Origin: a virus | Lineage: Duplodnaviria; Heunggongvirae; Uroviricota; Caudoviricetes | Reading direction: 5' to 3' (one strand) | Virus record (IMG/VR): IMGVR_UViG_2563366877_000002 | Length of the DNA: 51,594 nucleotides | In this document: positions 7,621-11,900 of the stretch, one piece after another | Numbering within the stretch: position 1 is the first letter of the stretch | Layout: every line of letters starts with the position of its first letter | Translations under genes and position numbers: made by a program | Notes under the pieces: generated by a model | What the model saw: the letters and a program-made list of their open reading frames with translations, nothing else | The model's database searches: none | Told to the model about the DNA's origin: nothing

Positions 7621-7721
7621 GTTCTGGGTTATAAAATTCAGCTGATACTGATACCTGCTGTGGATTTTTTCATCACCACAACCAGCAGATCGCTGATACT
7701 GGTTGTTGGTGTATGTAGTGG

Positions 7722-8468
7722 TCAAGTAATATTGGCCACGGTTTTACAGTAAAAATGGTATCTGTTCTCTGACTCTTCCGGCGTCAGCCCACCGTTATAA
7801 TGGTGAGGTCTGACGCTGTTGTAGTAGTTCAATATGTAATCATTAATTTGCTGCCGGGCCTCGTCCTTGCCTGCGTAACCATTCGTTGGCACCCATTCTG
7901 TTTTCAGACTGCGGAAGAAGCGTTCCATGGGGCTGTTATCCCAGCAGTTTCCCCGCCGACTGACGCTTTGATTTATTCTGCAACGCCAGAGAAGTTGTTG
8001 ATATTTAAGGCCTGTATACTGGCTTCCCTGGTCGCTATGGAACACGACATCCCGGGGTTGGCCACGCGTCTCATAGGCCATCCGCAGGGCACTGCTTATC
8101 AGTGCGGTATCGGCATGCGCTGACAGACTCCAGCCGATAACCCTGCGGGCAAAAAGATCCATAACAACCGCCAGATAGCACCAGCGATTTCCTGCCCAGA
8201 GATACGTAATATCTCCACACCATACCCGGTCTGGCTCCGGTACTGCGAACTGACGCTCAAGCAGATTCGGCAGGCTGGTATGCTCCTGACGAGCATTTTT
8301 ATACTGATGTTTTCCGGGCTGACAACTGCTCAGGTTCAGATATTTCATCAGACGTCCGGCACGGTAACGGCTCATCGGGACGCCGTTTTGAGTCAGCATT
8401 TCAGCCAGAGTGCGCGCGCCCGCAGAGCCCCGACTTTGGTTCCACGCCCGGCGTATTTCGCTGCACAA
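7722..8468 (-). CDS. IS3-family transposase OrfB (DDE/rve domain), expressed as OrfAB by -1 frameshift
   Basis: rve-type catalytic core; ORF is in -1 frame relative to orfA and open upstream to the slippery site. Confidence 0.75.
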
Positions 8469-8587
8469 CCTGACTCGTGCCGGATTAACCGTATCGCGTC
8501 GTTTTCGCCAGTACCGGTAACTGCTGCGGTGTATTTCCAGAGCAGAACACAGGCTGACAACCGTGTGGCTGTCACTTAGTCTGGCGG

Positions 8588-8935
8588 CTATCGTGAACCG
8601 TTCAGCGAGTCGGACATTAAGAGCGCGGTAGCCTTTTTTAATATCGTATTTTGTTCCTCCAGACGGCGAACTTGCTTTTCCAGCTCGCGGATACGTTGCT
8701 GGTCTGGAGTAATGGGTGTGGCAGAGGGCGTAATACCCTGGCGCTCTCGCCTGAGCTGGCGTACCCAGCTCTCAAGCGTGGTTGAACCGACATTCATCGC
8801 TTCACTGGCCTGTCGATATGAGTAGCCCTTATCAACAATCAGCTGTGCACATTCCAGCCTGAACTCAGGGGTGAAGGTTCGTTTGGTTTTCTTGTTCATT
8901 AAGTCACCTGTTTTGTGTTGTGGTGAGAATATCAC
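8588..8935 (-). CDS. IS3-family transposase OrfA (HTH), IS911-like
   Basis: 115 aa ending [18 protein letters not shown]; slippery heptamer AAAAAAG at 8633-8639. Confidence 0.8.
8633..8639 (-). other. programmed -1 ribosomal frameshift heptamer (A AAA AAG) of the IS
   Basis: heptamer read directly in orfA frame just before its stop. Confidence 0.6.
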
Positions 8936-8955
8936 CTTTCATCAGGTGGCCAAAT

Positions 8956-11900
8956 TTAGTGTGCCACTACAGTCCAGTTATTCGCTCCTGATGAAGATAC
9001 GGTGAATGTCAGTGTCAGCGTCCCCTGTCCGGCAGGCATATCTATAACTGAGGAAAATACGCCCTGAGCATCCGTCGTGGACTGATTAAAAATCTCCTGA
9101 CCATTGCGGGTCACTCTTAACCGGCAGGTTGAATACCAGTATGACTGTTGGTTATTACTGTTGAAATTCTCATGCTTACCACCGCGGAATAACACTGGCG
9201 GTATCATGACCTGCCGGTCAAATTTCTGATCATCACTGATTCTTACCGTGATGGTGCCACTGGCATAACTGTTCGTGCGGGGGAAAGACTTGCTGACCGT
9301 TTTGACAATATCGCCTTCAATCTGATTGGCTGACAGTTTCCCCTTAATCTGACAGTTTTCATTAATCGTGACATTGTTGAGCGTCCCTGAATTTGCATTC
9401 ACATTACCGCTGATATCCGCATTTTTAGCGGTCAGCTTTCCGTCTGGTGTCAGGGAAAATGCCGGCGGATTTCCACCGCTGGTAATGGTGGGAGCCGTCA
9501 GGCGTTTCAGGAACACGTCATTCATGAATATCTGGTTGCCCTGCGCCACAAACATCGGCGTTTCATTCCCGTTTGCCGGGTCAATAAACGCGATACGGTT
9601 AGCGGCAACCAGAAACTGGCTCAGCTTGCCTTCCTCCGTGTCCTCCATGCTGAGGCCAATACCCGCGACATAATGTTTGCCGTCTTTGGTCTGCTCAATT
9701 TTGACGCCCCACATCGCATTCCATTTATCGTTAGCGTCCTTCCACTCTTTCGAAAACTCATCCAGTCTGCTGGCGTTATCCTCCGTCAGATCAACTTTTT
9801 CCAGCAGCTCTTTACCGAGATGGGATTCGGTTATCTTGCCTTTGAAAAAATCCAGGTAACCTTCCGCATCATCGCTCGCCCGACCGACGGCCTCCACGAA
9901 TGCCGATTTGCCAACGGTGTTCACACTGCGGATATAAAAGTAATAATCATGGCCCGGTTTGATATTGATACTGGCGGCTATCCAGTACAGCCCCGCGCCA
10001 AGGTAGCGGGCTGTGGTTTCAACCTGCCTGATATCGGTAATCCGCGTTTCCGAGAACCAGAACTCAAACTGTACCGTCGGATCATAAACCGCAAGATGCG
10101 GCGTGGCAGTTATCTGAAAATAGCCCGGCGTCAGCTCAATCCGCGACGGTGCTACCGGTGCGGCAATCCTGAACGATACCGACGCCGGATCGCCCTGCTG
10201 TCCCCACGCATTTACCGCCCGGACTGTCAGCGTGTACCGTCCCAGCGCCAGTTGCGTGAAGCGGTATGTGGTTTCCGCCGTCCGGGCCGTGCTGACCAGC
10301 CGCTCACTGCCGTCATCCGCTGCCACGGTCAGGCGAAGCAGGAAGCTCACGCCCTTCACCACCTTCGGCGTGTCCCATCGCGCCAGCACCTGATATTCCC
10401 CGCTGTCTGCAGTGACTTCGGCGGTCAGATGCTGCACTGCTGGCGGCGTGACACCATTCACCGTGCCGCTCTGGTCGCCGTCAAAGTGCGCCCCGTTATC
10501 CACGATGGCCTCTTTTTCCGGTACATGCTGCACGGCGGTGATGGCATACGTGCCGTCATCGTTCTCACGGATACTCACGCAGCGGAACAGGCGCTGGCGC
10601 AGCGTCGGCAGCTTCAGCCCCCACACGCTGTATCCGGCAACGCCGTCAGGAACACGGCTCACTTTTACCTTCACGCCGTCGGTGACGGACTGGACCTCCA
10701 CGCTGACCGGATTGCCACTTCCGTCAACCAGGCTTATCAGCGTGGTACCGGAGGATGGCAGCGTGATTTCACGGTCGAGCGTCAGCGTCCGGGTCTGGCT
10801 GTTCACCGCCAGCACGCGCCCGCCGATGCTGATACCCGCATAGTCATCATCGCAGATTTCAATGACATCCCCCGGTACATGGCGAAGCCCTTCCGCACCC
10901 ACGCTGAAGTCCACGGTCTGCGTTTCCAGCAGTTCCGTTTTAATCAGCCACAGCCCGGCGCGGTGCGCCTGCCCCCGGCTGGTACAGCCAAAGGCATCCA
11001 TCTTCGTGACGTTACGACCGTAACGGGCAATGGCCTGCGTATCTTCAACAAGCTCTGTCGCCGTCTCCCAGCCGTTGTTCGGGTCAATCCAGTTCACCTC
11101 AACGGCATTATGGCGGTCCTTCAGGGCGCTGAAGCTGTAGCGGAACGGCGCGCCATCATCCGGCATCACCACATTACTGCGGTTATAGGTCCACACCTTA
11201 TCTGATGGTCGGTCCTGCACGAACGTCAGCGTCTGCCCGTTCCATACCGGCATACAGCGCATCGCCGAGCAGAAATCACTGAGCACATCCCACGCCTTGC
11301 GCTGTGTGGTCAGGTACGCATTACAGGTGATGCGCGGCTCCGTGCCGCCAAAGCCGTCCGGCACCGACTGGTCGCAGTACTGGCCGATGACATACAGCGC
11401 CCATTTATCTACATCCGCTGCACCAAGACGTTTCCTCATGCCGTAGCGCGGATGGGTCAGCATATCCCACATACACCAGGCCATGTTGTTGCTGTATGCC
11501 GGTTTAAACGTTCCGTCCCAGATACCGCTGTATTGCCGCGTCTGCGGGTTATAATTCGACGGCACCTGCAGAATACGCCCGCGCAGATGATAATTACGGC
11601 TCACCTGCTGGCTGCCGAACTGCTCCGAGTCCACCTGCACGCCGAACAGTGCCGTGTTCGGGTAGCACTGTTTCACATCGATGATTTCGGTGTATGACGA
11701 CCAGAGCGTTTTGTTCTGCAGCTGGTCTGTGGTGCTGTCCGGCGTCATTCTGCGCATCCGGATATTAAACGGGCGCGGCGGCAGGTTATCCACCACCACC
11801 GAGGCCAGATACTGCGAGGTGGTTTTGCCCTTAATGGTGATGTCTTTTTCCGTCACCCAGCCACCATTACGCTGTATCTGAACCAGCAGGCGAACTTCCG

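Follow-up and report, generated by a model that had tools for sequence, protein, structure and literature searches.

An ISEc31-like insertion sequence near the 3′ end of the tail tip gene J of a Qin-type lambdoid prophage of Escherichia coli

The window examined here is the whole 51,594-nt stretch of DNA of IMG/VR virus record IMGVR_UViG_2563366877_000002, a full-length lambdoid prophage at the Qin site of Escherichia coli with a ydfJ-pinQ flank and with int at the far end. The gene for its tail tip protein J is interrupted near the 3′ end by a complete insertion sequence (IS) of the IS3 family, and residues 1110–1132 of J, 23 in number, are missing from the protein that is now encoded. We hold with high confidence that this arose by simple transposition of an active-looking ISEc31-like IS3-family element into a GTC triplet of J, the gene being probably an OmpC-type 'A8' allele. 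An IS-interrupted prophage tail gene is in itself a textbook event of an already known kind. The element, the two parts of the gene and the flanks are laid out as follows (coordinates in the window, strand where one applies, description and basis):

7638..7710, minus strand: orphaned 3′ remnant of J, 70 coding nt (residues 1110–1132) plus the stop codon TGA, from in-silico excision
7711..7713: left copy of the 3-bp target duplication, GTA, with one mismatch to the target GTC, from comparison of the flanks
7714..8971, minus strand: complete IS3-family insertion sequence, ISEc31-like, 1258 bp, with its transposase co-directional with J and lom
7714..7739: IRR, the terminal inverted repeat at the orfB end, from comparison of the IS ends
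7722..8468, minus strand: orfB reading frame of the IS with the DDE/rve catalytic part, from the list of open reading frames (ORFs), NCBIfam and Pfam
8588..8899, minus strand: orfA of the IS, 103 aa, beginning MNKKTKR.., from the ORF list, Pfam, comparison of IS copies and Rfam
8633..8639, minus strand: slippery heptamer A AAA AAG, where orfA and orfB are presumed to be joined by −1 programmed frameshifting, from reading of the sequence
8946..8971: IRL, the terminal inverted repeat adjoining orfA, from comparison of the IS ends
8956..12297, minus strand: truncated J ORF, J residues 1–1109 plus VVAH, 1113 aa, WP_001543781.1 of E. coli KTE232
8972..8974: right copy of the 3-bp target duplication, GTC, the same as in the empty site, from comparison of the flanks

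The preliminary description of this DNA, made from the letters alone, had placed the two ends of the element at 7714 and 8971, and these boundaries are borne out by the terminal repeats and by copies of the element elsewhere. The tips read TGTAGTGG.. at 7714 and ..CCACTACA at 8971, giving the TG..CA ends of the family, and the terminal inverted repeats are 26 nt long, imperfect and 77% complementary. At 1258 bp the element falls within the 1.2–1.5 kb of IS3-family elements with such repeats and ends. It also has the overlapping orfA (helix-turn-helix, HTH) and orfB (rve/DDE) of the family, with an A6G-type motif in the overlap. The minus-strand open frames listed for the transposase span 8588–8935 and 7722–8468; the Pfam models HTH_Tnp_1 (the HTH of orfA) and rve (orfB) match the called IS genes, and orfB matches the NCBIfam model transpos_IS3 with E=8.8e-80. 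Copies of the same 1258 bp that differ at only 1–2 nt lie at many unrelated sites in E. coli chromosomes, where RefSeq labels them 'IS3 family transposase, programmed frameshift', and a match to the element is present in 2416 of 5426 complete E. coli genomes. Because near-identical 1258-bp copies occupy other sites, the boundaries of the element are defined independently of the J locus.

The same description had called the element 'IS911-like', a name that stands for the family but not for the specific element. Identity to a RefSeq-annotated IS911 copy in NCTC9064 is 63.6% over 1103 aligned nt, against an isoform convention of >95%, and IS911 itself was rejected on this ground. Identity to a copy labelled by RefSeq/PGAP as 'IS3-like element ISEc31 family' is 92.9%, and at ~93% the element and the ISEc31-labelled copy are, judged on nucleotide sequence, relatives and not one and the same. 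A separate observation concerns Rfam, in which the family isrC (RF01387, 'Hfq-binding sRNA') matches 8781–8903 on the minus strand at full length and with 150 bits, over the start of orfA; this RNA family seems to be the 5′ end of IS3-family elements of this type.

The site of insertion can be read from an intact allele. In the gpJ gene of NZ_CP062910 (WP_000515654.1, strain Res13-Lact-EA06-22) the empty site reads ..GGTGTCCAGTT.., and the intact sequence ..TTGGTGTCCAGTT.. corresponds in the window to ..TTGGTGTA, the IS, and then GTCCAGTT.. in that order. The target triplet is taken to be GTC because the intact allele reads GTC at the empty site. The GTA and GTC flanks had been reported before as they stand, and they are recast here as a 3-bp duplication of GTC with one mismatch. 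The two copies agree at 2/3 bases, where the IS3 family usually makes a direct duplication of 3–4 bp, and perfect 3-bp duplications surround other copies of this IS (AAA/AAA in O121 strains, GTT/GTT in strain L725). The mismatched GTA could be a later point change, a 2-bp duplication combined with 1 nt carried over at the IRR end, or a wrong consensus base at the edge of a repeat, and the reading frame is unaffected under any of the three. Recombination between two IS copies was also considered as the source of the mismatched flank and was rejected, since the whole left flank continues J exactly.

Deletion of 7711–8971 in silico gives a J gene of 3399 nt and 1132 aa with its TGA stop at 7638–7640, in agreement with the length and stop first proposed, and J of phage lambda is likewise 1132 aa long. 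The restored J is colinear with the intact gpJ gene of WP_000515654.1, also 3399 nt, from which it differs at 41 nt, all of them in the first 2619 nt; the last 780 nt, including the 70-nt orphaned remnant, are identical in the two. The restored protein, whose C-terminus the preliminary description had proposed to align, matches lambda J from end to end with 89% identity over 1131 aa, most of the differences falling within the last ~170 residues. The C-terminal 174 aa show 100% identity to J of the isolated phages Chlobot, PhiR70_1 and Lys8385Vzw and of several Stx1a-converting phages. They also agree at 173/174 positions, the last 23 residues included, with PDB 9wca/9wcb, 'A8 gpJ 713', and the restored C-terminus is homologous to the lambda J structures 8iyk/8xcj. 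The Pfam architecture is that of lambda-type gpJ (hub domains, FNIII, Ig repeats, Phage_Tail_Tip and Ig_GpJ_C), and the gene order K-I-J-lom-stf-tfa is the one expected for it.

The name 'A8' refers to a lambda gpJ chimera carrying the C-terminus of a natural E. coli phage gpJ, which has been used for DNA delivery via OmpC (Brödel et al., Nature 2024, PMC11338833). The A8 sequence was searched for in the supplements of that paper and was not found. From its sequence the intact J allele of the window is probably OmpC-dependent rather than LamB-dependent, the link to A8 being by the name of PDB 9wca only.

In the interrupted gene the last base derived from J is 8972, and the IS supplies the third base of Thr1109, the VVAH codons and the TAA stop (8956–8958). 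A loss of 24 codons had been reported; the count is 23, since the Thr codon, though split, is completed again by the base with which the IS begins. The complete C-terminal receptor-binding domain, with its conserved ..V.V.KK...G... tail, is not encoded, and the tail lies out of reach at 7641–7710. Databases already contain this truncated protein, identical throughout, under ELD30341.1, ELJ59459.1 and WP_001543781.1 ('phage tail component', E. coli KTE232), and it is present in two KTE assemblies. RefSeq and UniRef list WP_001543781.1 as an ordinary 'phage attachment tail tip protein J', with the IS origin of the last four residues unmarked.

Beyond the original stop codon the lambda-like arrangement continues, with a terminator and then lom at a lambda-like spacing, as had been suggested earlier (66 nt between J and lom here, 61 nt in lambda):

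7601..7620, minus strand: hairpin with a T-run behind it, resembling a terminator and lying between the original stop of J and lom, from inspection of hairpins
6972..7571, minus strand: lom, an Ail/Lom outer-membrane protein of 199 aa, intact, 66 nt downstream of the original J stop, from the ORF list and a profile match

No consensus match was found for an outward promoter of the IS toward lom, and the idea that the IS drives lom expression was dropped for that reason.

Both J and its remnant are without decay and the reading frames of the IS are intact, and the insertion appears recent for these reasons. Support for its reality comes from outside the window as well. Scaffold KB732530.1 (GCA_000351165.1) agrees with the window without a difference over 15.3 kb, a contig of GCA_000326825.1 has the sequence of the window up to a break 187 nt inside the IS, and the right junction occurs in independent assemblies of two strains (ELD30341.1 and ELJ59459.1). 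Among the 5426 complete RefSeq E. coli genomes, the top matches that cover the insertion to 100% are artefacts of joined pieces, in which an intact J has the IS nearby.

Several points weigh against simple transposition into J with loss of its function. The copies of the duplication differ, GTA vs GTC, and an extra point change, a carry-over or a consensus error is needed. For the left junction there are just the window and its source scaffold, the contig of the second assembly breaking inside the IS, and the exact insertion with both junctions is found in none of the 5426 complete genomes. Loss of function, for its part, is argued from conservation, a structure model and data on lambda, not from this allele itself. 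The break inside the IS, together with the fact that the source is a short-read scaffold and that the mismatch of one base in the duplication stands exactly at the boundary of a repeat, also speak for the alternative that the IS was misplaced here by assembly or scaffolding at a repeated element. We regard such an artefact as extremely improbable: a 3-bp duplication at a single triplet of J, where both flanks meet, is what a genuine IS3-family transposition leaves behind, and the right junction recurs in the independent assemblies named above.

What the loss of 23 residues means for the tail tip depends on the part of the protein to which they belong. That this part lies in the receptor-binding domain had been supposed before, and structure homologues, an alignment of 26 divergent alleles, an AlphaFold model and the lambda literature all agree on it. 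In the alignment, the last 18 residues form the most conserved block of an otherwise hypervariable domain, with V, V, KK and G invariant. None of the 26 alleles is an intact J that ends at the present stop of the window; all stop at one and the same later position. The AlphaFold model was built from the same alignment for the database protein P0001, which has an identical C-terminus, and the block-mean predicted local distance difference test (pLDDT) over model residues 101–220 of the domain is 75–97. A confidently predicted β-strand, LLVVVMK, lies inside the deleted segment. In lambda the Ig-like C-terminus of gpJ acts as the receptor-binding domain, and the tail tip opens as a consequence of receptor engagement (PMC11101478). 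When the last 150 codons of lambda J were subjected to deep mutational scanning, 69% of the single missense variants behaved as null-like, the null class being defined by nonsense variants (bioRxiv 10.1101/2020.06.25.171868).

From conservation, the structure model and the lambda data, J-VVAH is likely to be unable to mediate infection, with a loss of infectivity as the result. The steps may be pictured as follows. The insertion cuts the last 23 codons off J, and what the late operon specifies is J(1–1109)-VVAH, without the conserved β-strand segment that closes the Ig-like receptor-binding domain. A domain deprived of its last strand would be unable to fold or trimerise properly, and virions, if made at all, would either fail in irreversible receptor engagement and in the trigger for DNA ejection or would be without a proper tail tip. 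The lesion in J would by itself be enough to make the prophage non-infectious. The preliminary description had left the choice between impaired and altered adsorption, and of the two, impaired adsorption or injection has by far the higher probability, since the strand that is lost is the conserved part of the domain. That the truncated protein can still be assembled and function, its host range perhaps altered, is in our judgement very improbable. It would draw on the small size of the loss (23/1132 residues, with the hub, the fibre and most of the receptor-binding domain kept) and on the intact side tail fibre Stf with its chaperone Tfa, through which reversible binding would still be possible. 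The lost block, on the other hand, is the best conserved of the domain among alleles none of which ends early, it holds the predicted strand, and the C-terminal 150 residues of lambda J are extremely intolerant of change, with nonsense variants null.

The rest of the prophage bears on the consequence of a non-functional J. That it is a Qin-like prophage at ydfJ follows from the ydfJ-pinQ flank, DicF, the cspA-type leaders, sok and colinearity with Escherichia phage PhiR42_1 (PV340562.1), a viable Qin-like phage. Five matches at the Rfam gathering score are typical of Qin-type prophages, and further features of this background are listed with them:

46789–46840, plus strand: DicF
41166–41337, minus strand: sok antitoxin RNA
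32587–32979, minus strand: cspA-type thermoregulator leader
29692–30077, minus strand: second cspA-type thermoregulator leader
3343–3541, minus strand: 'IS009', inside the tail-fibre assembly gene
38991–40300: IS629/IS1203-like IS3-family element of 1310 bp, nested in an ISNCY-family element at ~38.4–41.1 kb, with repeats TGAACCGCCCCGGG..
39849–39965: Rfam ALIL frameshift pseudoknot, in the IS629/IS1203-like element
30792–31321, minus strand: gene R/rrrQ, with a 1-nt deletion at ~31245–31255
3884–6913, minus strand: side tail fibre gene, 1009 aa, intact, 92.6% identity to Stf of PhiR42_1

The middle of the side tail fibre gene is repetitive and rich in Ala, Ser and Thr, and this gives rise to long spurious ORFs on both strands (overlapping frames at 5292–6740).

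Gene R deserves closer attention. Alignment with PhiR42_1 shows that CCTCAGATACTT of that phage has become CCTCAG-TACTT in the window, and the deletion, at codon ~25/26, cuts the N-terminal signal-anchor segment from the catalytic domain. A search of complete E. coli genomes with this segment gave no match of 100%; the best ones reach 99.2% identity and have an additional base (122 vs 121 nt). The deletion is on this account either peculiar to this genome or an error. Should it be real, it makes the insertion in J one of two knock-outs, and lysis of induced cells and release of particles may fail altogether; probably the insertion is one of at least two lesions in the prophage, the other being this deletion in the endolysin gene. 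It could then be argued that the IS in J has no functional effect, the prophage being already dead through its private R deletion and releasing no particles whatever the state of J. We think this possible but rather doubtful. The alignment and the genome matches just given speak for it, whereas the two events may have occurred in either order and the deletion could be an assembly error, the region having been checked in one assembly only. This alternative moreover concerns the present-day consequence and not the identity of the feature, and it can hold together with an IS insertion that disables J.

The insertion in the window is not the only one of its kind. In O121:H19 strains a copy of the IS differing at 1 nt/1258 lies in another J allele, 84 coding nt before the stop, with an AAA duplication (6319–7576 of the stretch taken from NZ_CP028110, O121 strain RM8352, and in other O121:H19 genomes as well). 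The different J allele, the different position and the AAA duplication of its own mark the O121 insertion as an independent event. RefSeq calls the orphaned 90-nt J remnant of O121 'homoprotocatechuate 2,3-dioxygenase', apparently a misannotation. In other genomes with this IS or ISEc31 in J, ~570, 680, 690, 840 and 1230 nt of J are left before lom, and in several of these the upstream DNA is deleted.

Such recurrence could mean that the 3′ end of J is a preferred target of the element and that its loss is a recurrent route to prophage domestication. The independent O121 insertion of a nearly identical IS close to the J stop invites this thought, as do the distance of no more than ~25 aligned nt between the two simple insertions, which lie in different J alleles of unrelated lineages, and the several further genomes in which this IS or ISEc31 stands at most 1.3 kb from the end of J. 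The other copies, however, are spread over positions that leave ~570–1230 nt of J rather than clustered, and the target triplets differ (GTC, AAA and GTT). The search could detect only lom-proximal copies in this orientation, so that the orientation bias is a product of the query, and ISs are in general tolerated in prophage DNA and accumulate there. A site-specific hot spot was set aside, the triplets being different and the positions scattered. A J end favoured by the element as a hot spot is improbable, and it is equally hard to credit that ISEc31-like elements preferentially hit the distal part of lambdoid J genes. If that were true, the knock-out of the receptor-binding tip by an IS would be a recurrent and possibly selected route by which lambdoid prophages are locked in place while lom, stf and cargo genes are kept. 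We read the recurrence as ordinary IS accumulation in tolerated prophage DNA and not as a demonstrated hot spot.

The value of the observation lies first in annotation. WP_001543781.1 is a truncated fusion that ends in four IS-encoded residues and not an ordinary tip protein J, and the prophage belongs among the defective ones and should not be counted as intact. The example also illustrates that a full-length Qin-type prophage nearly identical to PhiR42_1 can be disabled by very few recent lesions. A further point is that this J allele, when intact, agrees with a gpJ of known structure that bears the name of the OmpC-binding A8 variant employed in phage-based DNA delivery. Current understanding is unchanged by the interruption of J, which is a real but ordinary case of an IS-crippled prophage in E. 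coli; its main use is the correction of the annotation and the flagging of the defect.

Set against known systems, the element resembles the ISEc31/IS3 family in its 1258 bp, TG..CA ends, 26-nt repeats and overlap of orfA and orfB at A AAA AAG, and in the 3-bp target duplications seen at other copies of the IS found in the window. The interrupted gene has its closest counterparts in gpJ pseudogenes such as those of O121:H19 (e.g. RM8352) and L725, which carry the IS with 1–2 nt differences as simple insertions with 3-bp duplications and whose J is annotated as 'incomplete, missing C-terminus'; these are independent events elsewhere in J, and in the case of O121 in another J allele. Lambda gpJ (PDB 8iyk, 8xcj) shares with the restored protein its length, 89% identity and Pfam architecture, and has lom next to it at a similar spacing, whereas the receptor-binding domain of the window is an allele other than the LamB-binding one of lambda and diverges over the last ~170 aa. 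The 'A8' gpJ shares 173/174 C-terminal residues with the restored J, the copy in the window being interrupted. As a whole the prophage is most fully matched by PhiR42_1, with the same gene order from int to pin, identities of 99.5% (early region) and 97% (late region), and 74/76 coding sequences (CDS) of the phage have full-length, stop-free matches in the window, the exceptions being J and R. In PhiR42_1, by contrast, J is intact, 1165 aa long and of another receptor-binding-domain allele, R is intact as well, and the ISNCY element (two transposase CDS) lacks the IS629-like insertion.

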